Shown: positions 12,305 to 21,484 of the stretch, piece by piece
How positions within the stretch are numbered: position 1 is the first letter of the stretch
How the letters are laid out: every line of letters starts with the position of its first letter
Assembly (NCBI GenBank): GCA_018065615.1
Contig: JAGHSY010000033.1
Coordinates: 8,210 to 72,209, forward strand
Reading direction: 5' to 3'
From: Candidatus Colenecus caballi
GTDB lineage: Bacteria; Bacteroidota; Bacteroidia; Bacteroidales; Bacteroidaceae
Length of the DNA: 64,000 nt
The notes under the pieces: generated by a model
Seen by the model: only the letters and a program-made list of their open reading frames with translations
Databases searched by the model: none
What the model was told of the DNA's origin: nothing
Translations under genes and position numbers: made by a program

Positions 12305-13497
12305 CGGTCATGAAATTCATTGCCTACCTGATCTGCTACATAATTTATCCGTTCTCATTCCTGTTCCCACGCAGCAGGAACAAATATGCATTCGGCAGTT
12401 TCCGCGGATCGTTCAATGACAACGCCCGCTATCTGTTCATATATGCAGCCGGACATTCTGAGGGCGAAATCAGGACGGCATGGATTTCAAAGAACCGGGA
12501 CAGCGTAAGGAAAGCCCGCAGCTACGGACTCAGGGCATATTGGATTTTCAATCCCGCCGGAATCTGGTATGCGCTGACATCAAGATACTGGTTCTTCAAC
12601 TCATATACATCGGACATAATGTTCTGCCTGTCAGGCGGTGCGGTCTGTATAAACCTGTGGCACGGCGTCGGTCTGAAAAGAACAGAGTTCAACACCATAT
12701 CCGGCCCGCTTGCCGATCGTTATTCAAAGAAGAACAGGCTGGATGTATTCTACCACCCTGAATCATTCCGCCGGCCGGACTGGCTTCTTACATCCACCCC
12801 GTTCCAGACATCCATGTTCGCTAAGGCATTCCGCATTCCTGAAGACCGTTGTCTGGAATTCGGATACCCCAGAAACCGCATCCTGACATGCAGTGAAGAT
12901 GAACGCAGCAGTTTCATAAGGAAATATGAGACAACTGAAACCGGTCAGTTCATTGAAAGGCTGGCAGGATATGACAAGGTGTATGTCTATATGCCCACAT
13001 GGCGTGACTCACAACGGACAATATTCTTACAGAGCATGGACCTTGAACGGCTTAACGGCATAATGGCCGGAAAACATTCTCTGCTAATACTCAAACCGCA
13101 TGCCAACGTCATTCTGACAGACAACATACAGTCACTTTCAAATGTCATCCTCTTTGATCCGAAAATGGACATCTATCCGGTGCTGCCCTATTCCGATGTC
13201 CTGATTACCGACTATTCGTCAATCCTTTACGACTGGCTTCTCATGGAATATAAGGATGTCATACTCTACCTGTATGACTATGAGACATACGTTAAGGAAC
13301 GTGACTTCTATTATCCGTTTGACGAAAATGTGGCTGGCACAAAGGTCTATGATTTCGAATCATTGTGTTCATGTCTGGAATCAGGGGACCACGCCATGTC
13401 CGATGACGAACGCTGCAGGATTGTGGAAAAGTTCTGGGGCCGGTCAGCAGGATATGACTCATCGGAAAAGATTTTGGAATTTGTTGAAAGAATATGA
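12301..13497 (+). CDS. CDP-alditol phosphotransferase (TagB/TagF, Glyphos_transf family)
   Basis: YMPTWRDS and VLITDYSSILYDW are signature motifs of teichoic-acid-type glycerol/ribitol-phosphate transferases. Confidence 0.8.
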   Translation: MTVMKFIAYLICYIIYPFSFLFPRSRNKYAFGSFRGSFNDNARYLFIYAAGHSEGEIRTAWISKNRDSVRKARSYGLRAYWIFNPAGIWYALTSRYWFFNSYTSDIMFCLSGGAVCINLWHGVGLKRTEFNTISGPLADRYSKKNRLDVFYHPESFRRPDWLLTSTPFQTSMFAKAFRIPEDRCLEFGYPRNRILTCSEDERSSFIRKYETTETGQFIERLAGYDKVYVYMPTWRDSQRTIFLQSMDLERLNGIMAGKHSLLILKPHANVILTDNIQSLSNVILFDPKMDIYPVLPYSDVLITDYSSILYDWLLMEYKDVILYLYDYETYVKERDFYYPFDENVAGTKVYDFESLCSCLESGDHAMSDDERCRIVEKFWGRSAGYDSSEKILEFVERI

Positions 13498-14399
13498 TTT
13501 CAGTTATAATCTGCACATACAATAGAGAGAAGTACATCTATAACGTACTGAAAAGCCTTGCTGACGGCACTATGCCTGCAAACGCATATGAAATCATACT
13601 TGTTGACAACAACTGTACTGACGGAACACGTCAGGAAGTGGACCGGTTCTGTAAAGATTTCCCGAACGTACAGCTGAGATACTGTATAGAAACCAATCAG
13701 GGCCTGTCCCATGCCCGCAACAGGGGAATCCAGGAATCAGCAGGCAACATACTGGTCTATGTCGATGATGACGCAACAGTAAATGCAGAATACCTTTCAG
13801 CCTATGCCTCATGGTTTGAAGCCCACCCCGAAACCCATGCGGCAGGCGGACCAATCATTCCACATTATGAAACAGGCAGTGAACCGCGCTGGATGACCTA
13901 TTTCATAAAGAGACTCCTGACCGGATATCTGTATTTTGGAGACAAGGCCAAACCTTTCCCCGGTGACAACTACCCCGGAGGCGGAAATGCCGCATACCGC
14001 AGGGAAGTGTTTGATAAGGTCGGACTTTACAACGTCCAGCTGGGACGTAACGGTGACAGTCTGGCCGGCGGTGAGGAAAAGGACATATTCAACAAAATGA
14101 AAAAGGAAGACATGCAGTTCACATATCTTCCCGATGCTGTTCTGTATCACAGCATTCCAGCCTACAAACTGGAACCTGACTATTTCAACCGCCTGACATA
14201 CAGCATAGGTCAGAGCGAAAGGGCACGTACTTTAAAAATTGGAAAGAAAGCTTACCGTGGACGTATTCTGTCAGAGTGCAGGAAATGGGCCGCAACAATT
14301 GTATTGTGGTGTTTCTATCTTGTTACATTCAGACCGTCACGCGGAAATATGCTCATACGCTTCCGCCGCAATGTGACACGTGGCCTGACCGGAAAATAA
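13494..14399 (+). CDS. family 2 glycosyltransferase
   Basis: ISVIICTYNRE, VDNNCTDGT and the DxD-type VYVDDDA. Confidence 0.85.
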   Translation: MISVIICTYNREKYIYNVLKSLADGTMPANAYEIILVDNNCTDGTRQEVDRFCKDFPNVQLRYCIETNQGLSHARNRGIQESAGNILVYVDDDATVNAEYLSAYASWFEAHPETHAAGGPIIPHYETGSEPRWMTYFIKRLLTGYLYFGDKAKPFPGDNYPGGGNAAYRREVFDKVGLYNVQLGRNGDSLAGGEEKDIFNKMKKEDMQFTYLPDAVLYHSIPAYKLEPDYFNRLTYSIGQSERARTLKIGKKAYRGRILSECRKWAATIVLWCFYLVTFRPSRGNMLIRFRRNVTRGLTGK

Positions 14400-14978
14400 T
14401 CAGCCGAACACCTTCTCCAGCAAATCAACAAACTCCCTGTAGGCAAACGTATCCTTGAGTTCTGAGAGCGATGCCGCCAGACCGCGGTAGTGCCACTCAT
14501 GGTCTGCCTTGCCGCCAGGAGCATGGAAAAGGCTCCACAGCTTGTCTCCGTCCTTCATATAGTCCCTGTAGATGGCGCGCATGTTTGACAGCTTGTCACC
14601 CATGGCCACCATTTTGGAATCCGTTGACACTTTTGCCAGACGGTCAATTGCGGCCTGCTTGCGGTCACGCCAGCTGTCAGTCTCACTTACCCCTTCAGTG
14701 AACCTGTCACTTTCAGAATCGACAATGGCGGCAATCCTGTCACCGAATTCGGCACGGATCTGTTCAACGGTGACATCGGTGTCCTCAACCGTATCATGAA
14801 GTGCGGCGGCGGCCAGCAGTTCCTGGTCCGATGTCATGGAAGCCACAATTTCCACAGCTTCCATCGGATGTACTATGTACGGAAAACCCTTTCCGCGACG
14901 TTCAGTATTCTCATGTGCCTTGACTGCAAATACTATTGCCTTGTCAAGCAGTGCCGTATCAATGTACTTGTTTCCCAT
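14400..14978 (-). CDS. HD-domain small alarmone hydrolase (SpoT/Mesh1-like (p)ppGpp-type pyrophosphohydrolase)
   Basis: 192 aa. HPMEAVEIV, AAALHDTVEDTD and MGDKLSNMRA match the RSH hydrolase-domain motifs. The start lies 2 nt after the synthetase stop. Confidence 0.8.
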   Translation of the reverse strand: MGNKYIDTALLDKAIVFAVKAHENTERRGKGFPYIVHPMEAVEIVASMTSDQELLAAAALHDTVEDTDVTVEQIRAEFGDRIAAIVDSESDRFTEGVSETDSWRDRKQAAIDRLAKVSTDSKMVAMGDKLSNMRAIYRDYMKDGDKLWSLFHAPGGKADHEWHYRGLAASLSELKDTFAYREFVDLLEKVFG

Positions 14979-14980
14979 AC

Positions 14981-16099
14981 CTACTGTTTTTTCATGAACG
15001 GCATCCTGGCTGTCTTTTCAACCAGCCTCTGTGCCCTTGTCCTGTTATATGATGATGGTCCGTTCAGTTCATCAAAGAATGATGCCAGACCGTCTTCTCC
15101 GCCTCCGTTTTTAAGAATATGTACGATGCACAGATCCTGGACTGACACCGTCGATGAAATGATGTCAAGGTCCGTACCGCCAATTTCAAGCTTTGCCAGC
15201 TGATAGGCATCATCACTTGACTCCTTCTGCAGCTTCTCAATGTCACCAAGAGTCTTGAAACCCAGATACTTGAACATTCTCAGATACGGCATCAGGGTGT
15301 CCTGATGGATTTCGGCCTGATTGATGGCTGCAATATGGTTGTTCAGTTTGTCAAAAGGCTTCAGATTCAGGTAACTGCGGAACGTGTCGACATCAAGTGA
15401 GACCTCGTCAAAATTACCGCTGGCAACCAGAGCCTGTACCTGACGGCGGTATTCGTTGACGGCTATGCGGATGCGGCTGAACTCGTCATCGGCAAGTTCA
15501 AGCACTCCGGCCAGACGGTTCATGTTCCTCAAATGCTCGACAGGAATCTCCACATCACCCTTGTATCCGCAGTCATGGTTCATGTTGGCCCACATGTGCT
15601 GCAGGGTTGTACGCAGCTGCAGTTCCCATCGGAATTCATTTATCTCCGGATGGGCCGGATCGTGGTACAGTTTCTTTGGGACACGGCAGATGTAATGCAG
15701 TGACATGTATCCGAAACTGTCAAGAGTGTGCATCTTGCGCTTGTCAACTGAATTCTCCCAGTCAATGTCAAAGTTGTTTTCTGCAATGGCCGCAATCTTG
15801 TCCACGTCATCAGTATAGAAAGTGATGACACGTGTACCGACAATGTCCGTGATGTCACTCAGAGTCCTGTATTTGTGACCTTTCAGTTCCAGCTTGCCGG
15901 CAAGGCTCTTCTCTTCCTTGACACGCCCTTCAACTGCAGTTACAAACATGCCGTTCTGTTTGAGCGCCTGTCTTATGCAGTCCAGAATGATTTCCTTTAT
16001 CTTGACGAATGACTCATAGTTTGCACGATACTCTTCAAGTATCATCGTGCAGTGCATGTCAAGACCGTATTTTTCAAGATCGTCCTGTTCCATAAACAT
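14981..16099 (-). CDS. RelA/SpoT-synthetase-domain protein (small alarmone synthetase-like pyrophosphokinase) with ~160-aa C-terminal extension
   Basis: RVKEEKSLAGK, DIVGTRVITF, GYMSLHYI and ELQLRTTLQHMWANMNHD are the four synthetase motifs, all intact. I do not recognise the C-terminal third. Confidence 0.85.
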   Translation of the reverse strand: MFMEQDDLEKYGLDMHCTMILEEYRANYESFVKIKEIILDCIRQALKQNGMFVTAVEGRVKEEKSLAGKLELKGHKYRTLSDITDIVGTRVITFYTDDVDKIAAIAENNFDIDWENSVDKRKMHTLDSFGYMSLHYICRVPKKLYHDPAHPEINEFRWELQLRTTLQHMWANMNHDCGYKGDVEIPVEHLRNMNRLAGVLELADDEFSRIRIAVNEYRRQVQALVASGNFDEVSLDVDTFRSYLNLKPFDKLNNHIAAINQAEIHQDTLMPYLRMFKYLGFKTLGDIEKLQKESSDDAYQLAKLEIGGTDLDIISSTVSVQDLCIVHILKNGGGEDGLASFFDELNGPSSYNRTRAQRLVEKTARMPFMKKQ

Positions 16100-16884
16100 C
16101 AGATGAGATATCTGTTCCTCATTGTTTCAATATCGCGGTCTGTCATGCCGAAACACTTATGCAGATAGTCCAGCAAAGAGCCGTATCTGCTGCAGATGGC
16201 ATCAAGTCCCATCCTGAAATACTCCACATTGGCGCCGGCAAAAGTCTGGATGACCTTTTTGACCTCAATGTCTGTAACTCCCATTCTGTCACAGAGTTCC
16301 CTGACTTTGCTCGAATACTGGAAATTTGACAGGTCATAGTCAGCCACAATAGTGTCAATGTCACAGCCAAGTGCCGCAAGAACAAATGCGGCACCCATTC
16401 CGGTGCGGTCCTTGCCCTGCGAACAGTGCCACAGAATGGCACCGTCCTCATTGTCAACGACCAGACGCATGAACTTTGCATATGCAGGAACAGCACCGTC
16501 ACCAAGGCCCAGATCCATGTACATCTGTCTGGCAAAAGCCTGCACCTGCGGACGGTCGGCATACCTTATCAGCATGTCCAGCGGGTCAGCGTCATCATTC
16601 TTGAAGATTTCCTTCCAGACTTCACCGTTGGAATCAATCAACGGCATATGCAGATATCTGGCACCCGGAATCATCCGGTCCGGCGCCATTTCCACCTCAT
16701 AGTCAGAACGGAAATCAACGACAGTACGCACCCTGTAGCCATTGGCCAGCAGGTCCAGATCGGAATCCGATGCCTTTATGAGCGCACCGCAGCGTAAAAG
16801 CACCCCCGATCTGATAACGCGGCCTTCCTTATTTTTCAGACCGCCAAGACACCTGAAGTTTACAATATGTTCAGGTTCTCTCAT
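16099..16884 (-). CDS. protein-tyrosine-phosphatase-superfamily phosphatase (CX5R, Tyr_phosphatase_3-like)
   Basis: P-loop WHCSQGKDRTG. TGATG stop/start overlap with the downstream synthetase gene. Confidence 0.75.
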   Translation of the reverse strand: MREPEHIVNFRCLGGLKNKEGRVIRSGVLLRCGALIKASDSDLDLLANGYRVRTVVDFRSDYEVEMAPDRMIPGARYLHMPLIDSNGEVWKEIFKNDDADPLDMLIRYADRPQVQAFARQMYMDLGLGDGAVPAYAKFMRLVVDNEDGAILWHCSQGKDRTGMGAAFVLAALGCDIDTIVADYDLSNFQYSSKVRELCDRMGVTDIEVKKVIQTFAGANVEYFRMGLDAICSRYGSLLDYLHKCFGMTDRDIETMRNRYLI

Positions 16885-16891
16885 CAGACAA

Positions 16892-17194
16892 TCAGATTAT
16901 CTTGATGATGTTTGAGAAACCGGTAATGTCAAACACTTCCTTTACCTGGGGGTTCATGTTGGTCATGACCATGCTGCCGCCACGTGAGTTGACACTCTTC
17001 TGAAGCATGAGGAACATTCTCAGTCCCTGGCTTGAAGTGTATTCCATTGCAGTGCAGTCAAGTGTAATATCGGGTTTTTCTCCTGTCATCAGCGGTTCGA
17101 TGTCCTTCTGGAACTGGTCTGCGTTTGTGGTGTCAAGACGGCCTTCAAGCACAACATTGAATTTGTTTTCCTCCTGATTGATAGTTACATTCAT
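16892..17194 (-). CDS. STAS-domain anti-sigma-factor antagonist (SpoIIAA/RsbV-like)
   Basis: 100 aa with the conserved phospho-serine context EYTSSQGLRMF. Confidence 0.85.
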   Translation of the reverse strand: MNVTINQEENKFNVVLEGRLDTTNADQFQKDIEPLMTGEKPDITLDCTAMEYTSSQGLRMFLMLQKSVNSRGGSMVMTNMNPQVKEVFDITGFSNIIKII

Positions 17195-17228
17195 AGTAGT
17201 TTTCAGTTTATTGTTATTTGTTATTGTT

Positions 17229-17627
17229 TCATCCGATTTTCTTTATCATAGTAAGGTTGTTGCAACCGTCCTTGTACTCATAGCTGATGTCATCCATCAT
17301 CTGCTTGCACAGGAAAATTCCCAGACCGCCTATTTCACGGTCTTCGGCCGACAGGGTAATGTCAGGGTCGTCTTTGGCCAGCGGATTGAACTGGATACCC
17401 GAATCACGGAACGTTATGTAAAGATTGTCTCCTTTTATTTCCGTACCTACTTCAACGTATCCGTTTCCGTTCTCATAGGCATAATTGACTATGTTTTCAA
17501 CCACTTCTTCAATACATAATCTGAGTTTGAACTGCAGGGCAGGATCATCGACCATGTCTTCAGAAGCCATAAGAGTTTCAATGATTTGCGCAGACTTGCC
17601 GGCAATCGGATCAATCAGTACTTTCAT
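17229..17627 (-). CDS. anti-sigma-factor-type serine kinase (SpoIIAB/RsbW-like, HATPase_c_2)
   Basis: Start chosen at MKVLIDPIAG (cat at 17625-17627). N-box EEVVENIVNYA, G1 FRDSGIQFNP, G2 GGLGIFLCK. Confidence 0.85.
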   Translation of the reverse strand: MKVLIDPIAGKSAQIIETLMASEDMVDDPALQFKLRLCIEEVVENIVNYAYENGNGYVEVGTEIKGDNLYITFRDSGIQFNPLAKDDPDITLSAEDREIGGLGIFLCKQMMDDISYEYKDGCNNLTMIKKIG

Positions 17628-17699
17628 TTCGTCCTTATTTTGAATAGCGCAAAGAAAACGAAAAAAGTGCCTAAAATCAAATAATACCATATCTTTCTT

Positions 17700-17707
17700 T
17701 ATCTTTG
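17700..17707 (+). promoter_or_regulatory. candidate Bacteroidota -7 promoter box (TAnnTTTG)
   Basis: TATCTTTG lies 22 nt upstream of the lipid-kinase ATG, inside the 102-bp divergent intergenic region. Confidence 0.3.
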
Positions 17708-17729
17708 TAATACAGAAACTATTGTTGAC

Positions 17730-18629
17730 ATGTATTACATCTTTGTAATTAACGGAAGGGACGACATGCGCAGTGACATAGACTGCGACTTGAAAAGACA
17801 GCTTTATAATACCGAAATCCAATATGAAACCTACCACACGACAGGTATTGGAGACGGAATCCGTTTTGTAAGAATCTATTGTGACCTGCACCAGAATGCT
17901 GAGGTCTGTTTCATTGCATGCGGCGGAAGCGGCACTGTAAATGAGGTTGCACAAGGCATTTTCGGTTTCAGGCACAAGTCAATGGCCATAATGGCATACG
18001 GTTCGACAAATGACCTGATAAAGTATTATCCTGACAGGGACTTCCGTTCTCTGGACCGCATAATACGTGGTGAGAACACCAGACTTGACATAATCAGGGC
18101 CAATGACAACTATTCGCTGAATGTCATCAACTGCGGATTTGACGCCATGGTGGCTCACAGGGCAAACCAGTTCATTGAACGCGGAATCAAGGGTGCCAAA
18201 GGATACAGCCGCGCTGTCACCAGAAGCGTCCTGGGAAACAGGTTCAACAGAATCAGAGTCACCGCTGACGGTGAGAAGCTTAACCGGCGTTCAATTCTCA
18301 TGTGTACAATGGCCAATGCCGTTTACTGTGGAGGGCAGTTCAAATGCGCCCCATACGCAAAAGTCGATGACGGACTCATTGACCTCTGCCTGTTCAAGAC
18401 ATGCAGCATGTTCACTTTCCTGTATCTTCTGAACCATTTCAAAGACGGGTCGCATCTGACTGACAAATTTTCCAAAAGACACATCAAGTACCGTCAGGTC
18501 AGACACGTGGAACTTGACTCGGACTATCTCATTTACCTCTGTCTTGATGGCGAAACTACCGCTGCGACACATTTTGACATTGATATAATACCCGGAGCCA
18601 TCAACATGGTTCTCCCCTCAAAAGACTGA
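17730..18629 (+). CDS. diacylglycerol-kinase-family lipid kinase (YegS/BmrU-like)
   Basis: DAGK catalytic-domain layout with FIACGGSGTVNEV (GGDGT-type loop). Confidence 0.75.
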   Translation: MYYIFVINGRDDMRSDIDCDLKRQLYNTEIQYETYHTTGIGDGIRFVRIYCDLHQNAEVCFIACGGSGTVNEVAQGIFGFRHKSMAIMAYGSTNDLIKYYPDRDFRSLDRIIRGENTRLDIIRANDNYSLNVINCGFDAMVAHRANQFIERGIKGAKGYSRAVTRSVLGNRFNRIRVTADGEKLNRRSILMCTMANAVYCGGQFKCAPYAKVDDGLIDLCLFKTCSMFTFLYLLNHFKDGSHLTDKFSKRHIKYRQVRHVELDSDYLIYLCLDGETTAATHFDIDIIPGAINMVLPSKD

Positions 18630-18635
18630 TTGCAC

Positions 18636-19589
18636 ATGCTTGGAAAAAGGACTGTTACAATTGCATTGGCTATAGTCACGGCCATTGCCTTACATGCGCG
18701 TGAAACCGTCCGTTTCATGCCTGCATGGACTCCGCAGGCACAGTTTGCCGGATTCTATGTAGCTCTGGATATGGGCTTTTATGATGAAGAAGACCTTGAT
18801 GTGGTCATTGAGCACATGGGCATCAATTCATCAAAACCCGGAATTGTGAGAATAGCTGAAGGAGAGATTGACATGATAGGTTCACACCCCATCCAGGCAT
18901 TGATAGCCAGAGATGCCGGCACCAAAGTGGTCAACACGCTTCAAGTAACCCAGAATACGGGCATAATGGTTGTCAGCCACAAACCCATTGTGAATCTCCA
19001 GTCACTTGAAGGGGCAAAGATAGGCCGATGGCAGAGCGGGTTCAGTGAAATATGTGAATTGAGCTGCAAGGCCAACAACCTGAACGTAATCTGGGTTCCG
19101 TTCCTGAATGGCATAAACCTGTTCCTGTCCGGCGCCATTGACGCGACAGTGGCCATGAGCTACAATGAGTACAACCTTCTGGTGGAAGCCACGGGCGGCA
19201 TACCTGAAGAAAACTGCATACACTTCTCGGACTACGGATATGATATTCCTGAAGACGGGGTTTATGTCACCGAAGAATATTACAATACGCACAGGGAGAC
19301 CGTTGAGAAATTCAACCGCGCTACCTGCCGCGGATGGGACTACTGCATTGAGCACCCTGACAAAGCGCTTGACATTGTCATGAAATGGACCGAAAAGACT
19401 GGAATAAGGACCAACCGCTACCACCAGTCACTTATGCTCAAGAGCATGAACGGACTGATAGTGAATCCAAGGACTGGAAAAGCCGATTACAGTCCCATAC
19501 CTGAAGACAAGTTCAACAGACTGATACAGGCACTCATTGACATGCAGTACATTTCAAGTCCTACATCTTATAAGGAGTTCATAAAATGA
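18636..19589 (+). CDS. periplasmic solute-binding protein (NMT1/THI5-like, ABC-type SBP fold) with signal peptide
   Basis: MLGKRTVTIALAIVTAIALHA signal. Body resembles nitrate/sulfonate/thiamine-precursor type binding proteins. No permease or ATPase gene is adjacent. The stop overlaps the PP2C start. Confidence 0.6.
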   Translation: MLGKRTVTIALAIVTAIALHARETVRFMPAWTPQAQFAGFYVALDMGFYDEEDLDVVIEHMGINSSKPGIVRIAEGEIDMIGSHPIQALIARDAGTKVVNTLQVTQNTGIMVVSHKPIVNLQSLEGAKIGRWQSGFSEICELSCKANNLNVIWVPFLNGINLFLSGAIDATVAMSYNEYNLLVEATGGIPEENCIHFSDYGYDIPEDGVYVTEEYYNTHRETVEKFNRATCRGWDYCIEHPDKALDIVMKWTEKTGIRTNRYHQSLMLKSMNGLIVNPRTGKADYSPIPEDKFNRLIQALIDMQYISSPTSYKEFIK

Positions 19590-21484
19590 AAGCATCCGGT
19601 TCCTTTGCAAAACGGCTCAGCCTGAACATCATTTCCGCTACAGGTCTGCTGCTGATATTAGTAGCCCTTCTATTGGGTTTCTTTTCATATATTGTAAACT
19701 ACAAGTCAGCGGTAAAGGAGGCATCGGCCTCACTTGAAAACAACCTGCTTGACATAGAAAAGATGCTGACTGACGTTGAGGCCAGCACCAACAGCATAAC
19801 ATGGCTGCTGGAGAAATTCAATGACAACGGTGACGCCATCATTGACGTTGCGGAACATCTTGTCACGTCCGACACCAACATTGTGGCATGCGCCATAGGA
19901 TACGAGCCCTTTGAGTTCGATGACAATTCGGTGTATTTCTGCCCTACCGCCTTTATGGAAGGAGACCAGATCCGGTCAAAAATACTTGGAAGCGCAGACT
20001 ATGACTACCAGCTCATGGACTGGTATCTCATTCCGCGTCTGCTTGGCAAGCCGTACTGGAGCGAACCGTCATTTGATTCTGACGGATCAGGCAGACTTAT
20101 AGCATCGTACTCAAAACCGCTGTATCACGAAAACGGAGTCTTCTTCGGTGTCATCAAGGCCGATATCGACCTGAAATGGCTTACAGAAAAGGTTCAGGCA
20201 ATCAAGCCGTATGAGAACTCCATCACTGTTCTGGCCGGACGCAACGCATCGTACATAACTCACGTTGACAGCACCAAAATCCTTAACGAAACGCTGTTCA
20301 CCCAAGCACTTGAAGCCGGTGATGAAAAAGGCTTGATGGTGGCAAAGGACATGATTGCCGGCAACAGCGGTGTACAACATTTCGGCAATACCAGGGAAAA
20401 CGGCGGCATAATTGTCTATGGTCCCATGGACAACGGCTGGTCAGGTGCCATTATCTGTTCTTACAGTGACATTTACAGCGGTGTGAGAAAGGCCAATCTC
20501 ATAACACTGCTCATTGCCTTATTAAGCCTTGTGGCACTTTACTATACCGACAAATCAATCATCCAGCGTCTGACCCAGCCAATCACCGAATTCGCATATT
20601 CGGCACTGAACATAGGTCAGGGCAATTTCCACGCACGAATCCCTGAAATCAAGACTCAGGACGAACTCAGGCGGCTGCACGACGCACTCGGATACATGGA
20701 ATCGTCTATCAACAACTATATTGCCGAACTGCGCACCACAACGGCATCGAACGAACGTTTTGAAAGCGAACTGAACATTGCAAGCGCAATCCAGATGCAG
20801 ATGCTGCCCAAGGATTTCCCCAACTGTGACGAGATTGACCTGTATGCGACCCTGCATCCGGCCAAAGAGGTTGGCGGTGATTTGTACGACTTCTTCACAA
20901 ACGGGCGCAACCTGTATTTCTGCGTAGGTGACGTGTCAGGAAAGGGCGTTCCGGCTGCATTGTATATGGCTATCACACGAGCCGCATTCCGTTTCATTGC
21001 GGGCCTGGAACTGCCTGCCGAGGGTGTGGTGCAGAAAATCAACAACTCATTCTGCGACGGAAATGACAGCGGCATGTTCGTGACAATGTTTGTAGGCTGC
21101 ATCAATCTGGACACTTTGGAAATGAAATACTGCAATGCCGGACACAATCCCATCCTGATAATCAGTCCTGACGGCAAACCTGAATATCTGCATGCCAAAC
21201 CCAATCTGGCAGCCGGCCTGTTTGAGGACTTCCCGTACCAGGGTGAAACAATGCAGCTGGAAAAAGGATCCAGACTGGTCATTTATACCGATGGAGTCAC
21301 TGAAGCTGAAGACAGGGTCAAGAACCTGTACGGTGAGGAACGTCTGGAGCAGTTTGCAGCCAAGGAAGACACCGCAGAGGATTCTGTCAGCTTCCTTACC
21401 AATCTGGCCGCTTCAATCAAGTCGTTCACACTGGACAATGACCAGAATGATGACATAACCATGATGTCCATCAGACTGAAATGA
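19586..21484 (+). CDS. membrane sensor PP2C/SpoIIE-family serine phosphatase (RsbU-like) with periplasmic sensor domain and HAMP-like linker
   Basis: Two TM segments flank a ~270-aa extracytoplasmic region. PP2C motifs EVGGDLYDFF, CVGDVSGKGVPAALYM, YCNAGHNP, VIYTDGVTEA and NDDITMMSIR. Confidence 0.88.
   Translation: MKASGSFAKRLSLNIISATGLLLILVALLLGFFSYIVNYKSAVKEASASLENNLLDIEKMLTDVEASTNSITWLLEKFNDNGDAIIDVAEHLVTSDTNIVACAIGYEPFEFDDNSVYFCPTAFMEGDQIRSKILGSADYDYQLMDWYLIPRLLGKPYWSEPSFDSDGSGRLIASYSKPLYHENGVFFGVIKADIDLKWLTEKVQAIKPYENSITVLAGRNASYITHVDSTKILNETLFTQALEAGDEKGLMVAKDMIAGNSGVQHFGNTRENGGIIVYGPMDNGWSGAIICSYSDIYSGVRKANLITLLIALLSLVALYYTDKSIIQRLTQPITEFAYSALNIGQGNFHARIPEIKTQDELRRLHDALGYMESSINNYIAELRTTTASNERFESELNIASAIQMQMLPKDFPNCDEIDLYATLHPAKEVGGDLYDFFTNGRNLYFCVGDVSGKGVPAALYMAITRAAFRFIAGLELPAEGVVQKINNSFCDGNDSGMFVTMFVGCINLDTLEMKYCNAGHNPILIISPDGKPEYLHAKPNLAAGLFEDFPYQGETMQLEKGSRLVIYTDGVTEAEDRVKNLYGEERLEQFAAKEDTAEDSVSFLTNLAASIKSFTLDNDQNDDITMMSIRLK

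Follow-up and report, generated by a model that had tools for sequence, protein, structure and literature searches.

Why many bacteria keep extra small alarmone synthetases (SAS) as well as small alarmone hydrolases (SAH) alongside long Rel enzymes of their own is an open question. Five SAS subfamilies were shown to be toxins, the toxic SAS or toxSAS proteins (Jimmy et al. 2020, PMC7229694). Here, we analysed an adjacent SAS-SAH gene pair in a 64,000-nucleotide stretch of DNA from Candidatus Colenecus caballi (contig JAGHSY010000033.1, positions 8,210 to 72,209), hereafter called the window, whose own numbering is used throughout. The source genome is a metagenome-assembled genome (MAG) of 2.25 Mb.

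Several described systems share parts of the architecture found here. In the Bacillus RsbU-RsbV-RsbW-sigmaB and SpoIIE-SpoIIAA-SpoIIAB-sigmaF switches, a trio of PP2C phosphatase, STAS protein and GHKL kinase is combined with a sigma factor. HsbR-HsbA-HsbD is the same kind of switch as SiaABCD of Pseudomonas aeruginosa. In SiaABCD (PMC7647112), whether a STAS-like protein is phosphorylated depends on a PP2C phosphatase and a kinase, and the output is not a sigma factor but a nucleotide-messenger synthetase, namely a diguanylate cyclase making c-di-GMP. Among the RelA/SpoT homologues (RSH), the FaRel-ATfaRel-AT2faRel operon of Cellulomonas marina (PMC7229694, PMC11782079) combines a synthetase-only RSH protein, a validated toxin making (pp)pApp, with a SAH able to undo its product and a further protein regulator, a Tis1/pseudo-zinc-finger domain (pZFD) antitoxin. 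The fused, phage-borne CapRel (CapRelSJ46, PDB 7ztb; PMC9712102) carries an N-terminal synthetase (SYNTH) domain and a C-terminal regulatory pseudo-zinc-finger domain. RelQ and RelP (PDB 5dec, 2be3, 6ewz, 6fgk) are single-domain enzymes of ca. 210 aa that are linked to neither a SAH nor a partner switch.

Judged by its genes, the cassette in the window looks like a signal-gated stress-nucleotide switch and not like a toxin-antitoxin or anti-phage module. We consider it probable, at roughly 0.6, that the SAS-SAH pair provides output and reset in a partner-switching cassette that lacks a sigma factor and is conserved in gut and rumen anaerobes. On this reading, alarmone synthesis would be gated by a partner switch under the drive of a sensor phosphatase, and SAH would serve as the dedicated reset. 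Like the Bacillus switches, the locus encodes the PP2C/STAS/GHKL-kinase trio with conserved phospho-serine and ATP-binding boxes. Unlike them, it shows no sigma-factor domain in the nine genes scanned with Pfam (13494 to 21484), and SAS takes the sigma position in many relatives. The likeness to SiaABCD lies in the PP2C phosphatase and kinase predicted to act on a STAS-like protein, in the nucleotide-messenger synthetase as putative output and in the missing sigma factor. The output here would instead be a synthetase of the RSH type that has its own dedicated hydrolase, while the RsbW/SpoIIAB-like kinase is in some relatives fused to SAS, and the wiring is predicted from the genes. The features of the locus are as follows.

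14400-14978, minus strand: SAH, 192 aa, with an HD_4 domain (Pfam, E 2.9e-20)
14979-14980, minus strand: spacer of 2 nt between the SAS stop TAG (14981-14983) and the SAH start ATG (14976-14978), read from the sequence
14981-16099, minus strand: SAS open reading frame, 372 aa, a synthetase-only RSH protein (Pfam RelA_SpoT at residues 58-182, E 1.2e-16)
15422-16099, minus strand: SYNTH domain of SAS, approximately residues 1-226 (Pfam RelA_SpoT, AlphaFold2 model, Foldseek)
14984-15421, minus strand: C-terminal helical domain of SAS, approximately residues 227-372 (AlphaFold2 model; no Pfam match)
16099-16884, minus strand: Y_phosphatase3 (CX5R) phosphatase (Pfam, E 2.9e-57), whose stop shares 1 nt with the SAS start
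16892-17194, minus strand: STAS switch protein of 100 aa, anti-sigma-antagonist-like (matches to Pfam STAS and to NCBIfam ant_ant_sig)
17229-17627, minus strand: RsbW/SpoIIAB-like serine kinase, ca. 132 aa (Pfam HATPase_c_2, E 2e-20, and NCBIfam RsbW)
17730-21484, plus strand: divergent operon of the three genes that follow (Pfam)
17730-18629, plus strand: DAGK/YegS-like kinase
18630-19589, plus strand: NMT1-like binding protein
19586-21484, plus strand: Cache-HAMP-SpoIIE (PP2C) sensor phosphatase

The PP2C phosphatase, the GHKL serine kinase and the STAS protein with its phosphorylatable serine lie in one cluster. The phosphorylatable S54/S55 in the TSSQGL motif of STAS is conserved among 70 orthologues. 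The ATP-binding residues of the N, G1 and G2 boxes of the kinase are conserved as well. The neighbourhood of 5-6 kb around SAS was compared in 90 distinct Bacteroidales loci and a phylogenetic profile was compiled from 301 genomes of the GTDB family, 38 of them SAS-positive and 263 SAS-negative. Most of the genomes compared are MAGs, and Fisher tests ignore shared ancestry. A STAS or RsbW-like gene was found in the SAS neighbourhood in 73 of the 90 loci: STAS in 70, where it is directly upstream of SAS in 31, and the RsbW-like kinase likewise in 70. A SpoIIE orthologue was present in 42/90. Partner switch and SAH occur together at 57 loci, the partner switch without SAH at 16 and SAH without the partner switch at 11. 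All 38 SAS-positive genomes encode a STAS homologue, compared with 44/263 SAS-negative genomes. The RsbW-like kinase and STAS are thus steadier partners of SAS than SAH.

Gene order and gene fusions point in the same direction. In Paludibacteraceae and Prevotella, including Prevotella sp. P6B1 and MA2016, the order is SpoIIE-RsbW-STAS-SAS, and SAS therefore occupies the slot of the sigma factor. A Clostridia branch (ca. 37% identity) shows the order SAS-SAH-STAS, in which SpoIIE-RsbW may or may not be present and the hydrolase belongs to another subfamily. Further, an RsbW-like HATPase_c_2 domain is fused to the full SAS in three 521-aa proteins (P0122, P0271 and P0272) which share 74% mutual identity and come from independent contigs. 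Three other apparent fusions (P0125, P0183 and P0231), in which a PBP dimerisation domain, an amidohydrolase or FeoB is joined to a partial SAS, are likely assembly or gene-calling chimeras and were not used. Most of the nearest relatives found for the RsbW-like kinase domain are Cache-HAMP-SpoIIE-HATPase_c_2 proteins of ca. 786 aa (P0274-P0389), many of them from Bacteroidaceae MAGs; in these lineages kinase and phosphatase form a single membrane protein.

The pairing of SAS with SAH was the starting point of the preliminary description, which reported a synthetase-only protein of 372 aa followed after 2 nt by a hydrolase-only protein of 192 aa. This is borne out by the Pfam domains and by the minus-strand junction aaacagTAGgtATGggaaac, which reads as stop TAG, the two letters gt and then ATG. 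At 55 of the 90 loci, SAS is followed on its own strand by a SAH orthologue within 100 nt; the spacer has a median of 8 nt and measures 10 nt or less in 31 cases. Within the 5-6 kb neighbourhood, SAH is present at 68 loci. SAS and SAH are fused in at least 6 proteins. The adjacency is beyond chance. In the phylogenetic profile, the SAH orthologue occurs in 28/38 SAS-positive and 0/263 SAS-negative genomes (Fisher p 2e-31, subject to the shared ancestry mentioned above), and its restriction to SAS-positive genomes marks this SAH as dedicated to this SAS. The pair usually belongs to a larger cluster of five to eight genes.

The dependence runs in one direction. Of the 13 closest genomes, 8 have an unlinked SAH orthologue, which lies on another contig among housekeeping neighbours such as carB and dnaX, and at least 8 SAS-bearing genomes of 90-98% completeness encode no small hydrolase, HD_4 being confined there to the two long RSH proteins. 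SAS thus often persists without SAH while SAH is never found alone, which is the reverse of the toxin-antitoxin pattern and argues that SAS is not lethal by itself. At one locus where no SAH stands beside SAS (L007:7110-9668), the SAS stop overlaps the start of a 560-aa PRK/uridine-kinase protein, followed by a PNP_UDP_1 nucleoside phosphorylase, so that nucleotide-salvage enzymes fill the slot of the hydrolase. The SAS of another SAH-less relative (G155:C14:26203-27288) contains an in-frame TAG and is possibly a pseudogene.

By its residues, SAS is a catalytically intact RSH synthetase whose nearest solved relatives are RelQ and RelP and which carries a family-specific C-terminal domain. The Pfam scan gave 61.4 bits for PF04607 (cut-off 27) and found no HD domain. 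Across 59 aligned homologues, residues K61, K69, D85, R90, Y131 (the G-loop tyrosine), H135, E159 and Q161 do not vary, the ATP-binding Lys/Arg residues being among them, and the catalytic residues line up with the RelQ motifs GRVK, DIAGLR, GYRSYH and EIQIRT. A single-sequence search of the PDB returned RelQ/RelP as the only matches. Searched with the family profile, the PDB gave 81-90 bits for RelQ/RelP, 31 for CapRel, 16-25 for long Rel proteins and 15 for FaRel2, and no match to Tas1. The AlphaFold2 model of SAS (pLDDT 93.6) has the SYNTH fold of RelQ/RelP, which fill Foldseek ranks 1-39 with TM scores of 0.70-0.83, and CapRel follows at rank 40 with an rmsd of ca. 23 A. The two long RSH proteins that the genome also encodes were not detected by tblastn with the SAS SYNTH domain (E <= 10).

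The likeness to RelQ and RelP has clear limits. Sequence identity is 22-26%, SAS is linked to both a SAH and a partner switch, and at 372 aa with an extra domain of 146 aa it is not a single-domain protein. The NCBIfam RelQ/YjbM equivalog aligns with residues 24-218 at 60.3 bits, short of its cut-off of 320. In a maximum-likelihood tree of SYNTH domains, the RelQ/RelP clade (99-100% support) is separate from the clade to which the SAS of the window belongs. The clustering with RelQ/RelP considered in the preliminary description hence holds among solved structures, where these are the nearest relatives, but not in the tree, where SAS belongs to a separate clade with basal members on mobile elements. 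We also downgraded the argument that SAS must be a harmless enzyme because RelQ/RelP are nearest in the PDB. A lone SAS from a Mycobacterium abscessus prophage likewise scores best with RelP/RelQ, so this proximity is weak evidence of harmlessness, and the SAS family of the window falls outside RelQ/RelP in the tree.

SAH, in turn, is an intact HD pyrophosphohydrolase as far as its residues tell. HD_4 covers residues 14-136 (73 bits), no synthetase domain was found in the Pfam scan, and a PDB search ranks Lmo0812 (4yf1) and RelH (7qoc/7qoe), both of them SAHs, as the best relatives at E values of ca. 1e-20. R27, H37, H61-D62, E65-D66, D128 and N132, comprising the metal site and the ED motif, are invariant among 67 orthologues. 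With the catalytic residues invariant across homologues, SAS and SAH both appear to be active and under purifying selection. Hydrolases of the Clostridia type were missed by the hidden Markov model built for Bacteroidales SAH and recovered by a jackhmmer search seeded from locus L102. In this branch the hydrolase after SAS is often fused to Amidohydro_1, yielding proteins of ca. 610 aa (P0390-P0432; loci L113 and L114), and other hydrolase fusions carry ADP-ribosylglycohydrolase, NUDIX or WYL domains. One source names the Amidohydro_1 domain guanine deaminase, and this fusion hints at a guanine-nucleotide substrate.

The C-terminal domain of SAS (ca. residues 227-372) has no Pfam match. Modelled alone it folds confidently (AlphaFold2, pLDDT 93.9), and it is conserved with a mean column identity of 60% over 46 sequences. 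A fold search against the PDB, in a library that includes 7ztb, found no match (best E 5.7). The confident fold without a PDB match indicates that the domain is not the CapRel pZFD, and a CapRel-type C-terminus was ruled out on this basis. A sigma-factor-like docking domain was ruled out as well since sigma domains were unmatched in the fold search. The preliminary description had mentioned the C-terminal sensor/antitoxin domain of CapRel-type proteins, and SAS does carry an extra C-terminal domain. At 372-373 aa, SAS and fused CapRel also agree in length and in the order of SYNTH and C-terminal regulatory domain. The resemblance to CapRel or FaRel2 is not supported by profile or fold, the C-terminal domain does not match pZFD and the locus is not phage-borne.

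In the mechanism we propose, a signal sensed by the Cache-HAMP-PP2C protein would lead to dephosphorylation of STAS, and unphosphorylated STAS would then capture the RsbW-like kinase. This kinase would otherwise keep SAS inactive by binding or phosphorylation, probably via the C-terminal domain. Alternatively, STAS may activate SAS directly, as SiaC does with SiaD. The freed SAS would make an alarmone, by default (p)ppGpp or pGpp, while co-expressed SAH would hold the basal level low and end the pulse. Although SAH would formally oppose SAS in the manner of a type IV antitoxin, it would be a dispensable safety and reset enzyme and not an antidote for addiction or defence. Full-text literature searches turned up no publication in which a partner switch is coupled to an alarmone synthetase. 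We take Rv1366 of M. tuberculosis to adjoin Rv1364c/Rv1365c, a presumed vicinity that is not used in our argument. Rv1366 itself is an inactive SAS (PMC8622095).

At the locus itself, the start of SAS and the stop of Y_phosphatase3 overlap in the sequence TGATG. This junction and the STAS and RsbW-like genes upstream on the same strand, all three of which the preliminary description omitted, suggest that the SAS-SAH pair is the tail of a five-gene operon and not a bicistron. SAS might alternatively start at Met3, giving 370 aa as in the 99%-identical database protein P0001. For the RsbW-like gene, the mechanically called open reading frame (17229-17975, 248 aa) overlaps the divergent DAGK-like gene by 246 nt. 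The alignment with orthologues begins at MKVLIDP (17627), which gives ca. 132 aa and leaves a divergent promoter region of 102 nt (17628-17729), and this start is likelier because the longer frame overlaps the divergent gene. Y_phosphatase3 is close to SAS in just 20 of the 90 loci. In some relatives an APH-fold small-molecule kinase adjoins SAS (e.g. L011:5018-5944); the window has no such kinase and carries Y_phosphatase3 in its place. On the other side, a GT2 glycosyltransferase gene (plus strand, ending at 14399) and the SAH gene (minus strand, ending at 14400) are convergent with zero bases between them, so there is no space for a terminator between their operons.

The setting of the cassette is chromosomal. 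Its GC content is 0.483 (genome 0.497), and the flanks here and in relatives carry glycan-synthesis, transporter, peptidase and chaperone genes. A search of 50,697 phage records and 72,556 plasmid records found no full-length SAS orthologue, and no phage, plasmid or defence genes were detected in the context of the locus, where PADLOC matches only the generic SYNTH core. The match in question is to the candidate model PDC-S33 (E 7e-17, profile positions 34-175 of 349). It was rejected as evidence for defence because it covers this core only and distant and mobile SAS proteins match alike. Mobile relatives of the SYNTH domain exist nevertheless. Lone-cargo synthetase-only RSH proteins of 336-378 aa with 33-41% identity to the SYNTH domain of the window are encoded on the three elements below, and the M. 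abscessus prophage provides a fourth case. The C-terminal halves of the proteins with 33-41% identity are unrelated.

L104:436-1572: mobile SAS on the Klebsiella pneumoniae plasmid pZZW20-3.5K (NZ_CP058965), a 3.5-kb ColE1-type plasmid
L103:3989-5062: mobile SAS on Bacteroides finegoldii 'plasmid 44' (NZ_OY725946), a phage-plasmid, between terminase and HNH genes
L105:2899-3909: mobile SAS on the Vibrio filamentous phage PQ189320

The Klebsiella, Bacteroides and Vibrio synthetases are candidates for fused toxSAS-like or defence genes.

Several observations weigh against the partner-switch proposal. The mobile relatives branch at the base of the SAS clade in the SYNTH tree, and the ancestry of the SAS family may therefore be mobile, possibly that of a toxin or defence gene. 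In 17 of the 90 loci no partner-switch gene lies within 5 kb of SAS. The module is also patchy, a distribution that core physiology would not usually show: it occurs in 38/301 genomes and in 8/35 genera of the family. A clear sequence signature is absent from tRNA-modifying toxSAS (Kurata et al., bioRxiv 10.1101/2021.04.30.441581), and likeness to RelQ/RelP therefore does not fix the product of SAS. Finally, we infer all steps of the mechanism from gene order, fusions and homology.

The alternative that survives best, although we regard it as unlikely, is a toxSAS gated by the partner switch. Here, SAS would be toxic through (pp)pApp synthesis or tRNA pyrophosphorylation, the RsbW-like kinase and/or STAS would be its protein antidote and SAH its enzymatic antidote, and the sensor would trigger arrest or an abortive response. 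More doubtful is the specific form in which the RsbW-like kinase would be the protein antitoxin, sequestering or phosphorylating SAS via the C-terminal domain, and SAH a second, enzymatic antitoxin. FaRel offers the precedent, being flanked by a SAH antitoxin and a protein antitoxin (PMC7229694, PMC11782079), and the close coupling of SAS and SAH together with the strict dependence of SAH on SAS would fit such a design. Compared by its description, FaRel differs in two respects: the hydrolase here is in many cases missing or not linked, and what accompanies the pair is a phospho-switch and not a Tis1/pZFD antitoxin. SAS persists without SAH in at least 8 genomes and in some without nearby partner-switch genes, which is difficult to reconcile with a toxin. 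The basal mobile relatives argue for a toxin, and so do the C-terminal domains, which vary while the SYNTH core is conserved, a pattern also seen in fused toxSAS with sensors, as does the lack of a signature in tRNA-targeting toxSAS (10.1101/2021.04.30.441581), whereas the profile scores of CapRel and FaRel2 far below those of RelQ/RelP, the unmatched Tas1 and a C-terminal domain that is not pZFD argue against one. Further, a chemical cue from outside the cell, and not a phage trigger, is suggested by the periplasmic Cache sensor, and no defence-island or prophage context was found. If true, the specific form would place the FaRel design with its two antidotes under the control of a partner switch, and a periplasmic chemical cue could impose a reversible growth arrest or abortive response via (pp)pApp or tRNA pyrophosphorylation and not via (p)ppGpp.

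We consider it very unlikely that the pair is a classical two-gene type IV toxin-antitoxin or anti-phage module of toxSAS and SAH with unrelated partner-switch neighbours. The 2-nt spacer at this locus and the 55/90 loci with SAH less than 100 nt from SAS would suit such a module, as would a distant relative that has SAS and SAH with a 4-nt overlap and no STAS detected. Against it speak the lack of linkage of SAH in 8 of the 13 closest genomes, the at least 8 carriers that have no SAH, the co-localisation of partner-switch genes in 73/90 loci and across phyla and the existence of the RsbW-SAS fusion. The PDC-S33 match (E 7e-17), which could be taken as a sign of defence, is limited to the generic SYNTH core shared by unrelated SAS proteins, and a mobile or defence context was not found. 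From the toxSAS-SAH module put forward in the preliminary description, the conserved and tightly spaced pair with a dedicated SAH can be retained; the unlinked or missing SAH and the chromosomal housekeeping context speak against the rest. It had also named a partner-switch reading, which is better supported by synteny, the STAS profile and the fusions than a growth-arrest or defence module. Least probable of all is that SAS and SAH are two ordinary stringent-response housekeeping enzymes, neighbours by chance without dedicated relationship or special control: the two long RSH proteins of the genome and the housekeeping RelQ/RelP as nearest solved relatives would allow it, but SAH is never seen without SAS (0/263), SAS/SAH fusions recur, clustering with the partner switch is maintained in different phyla, the C-terminal domain is conserved and family-specific, and the distribution is patchy and not universal.

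In conclusion, the partner-switch reading would place an RSH enzyme among the few partner-switch outputs that are not sigma factors. Partner switches and small alarmone synthetases are both of known kinds; new would be the output of the former and the regulatory domain of the latter. The family, which occurs in gut and rumen Bacteroidales and Clostridia, is sizeable, comprising 959 representative clusters at E <= 1e-30, and several hundred GTDB species genomes encode a relative. Cultured carriers include Prevotella sp. P6B1 and MA2016 and Butyrivibrio sp. NC2002, and together with the RsbW-SAS fusion and the novel C-terminal domain they make the idea directly testable. For annotation, the locus is a warning that SAS-SAH bicistrons are not all toxSAS toxin-antitoxin modules. 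It suggests a non-toxin answer to the question of why extra small alarmone enzymes are kept: a synthetase-hydrolase pair that may be wired to a membrane sensor via a phospho-switch and would thus provide an alarmone input independent of the ribosome.

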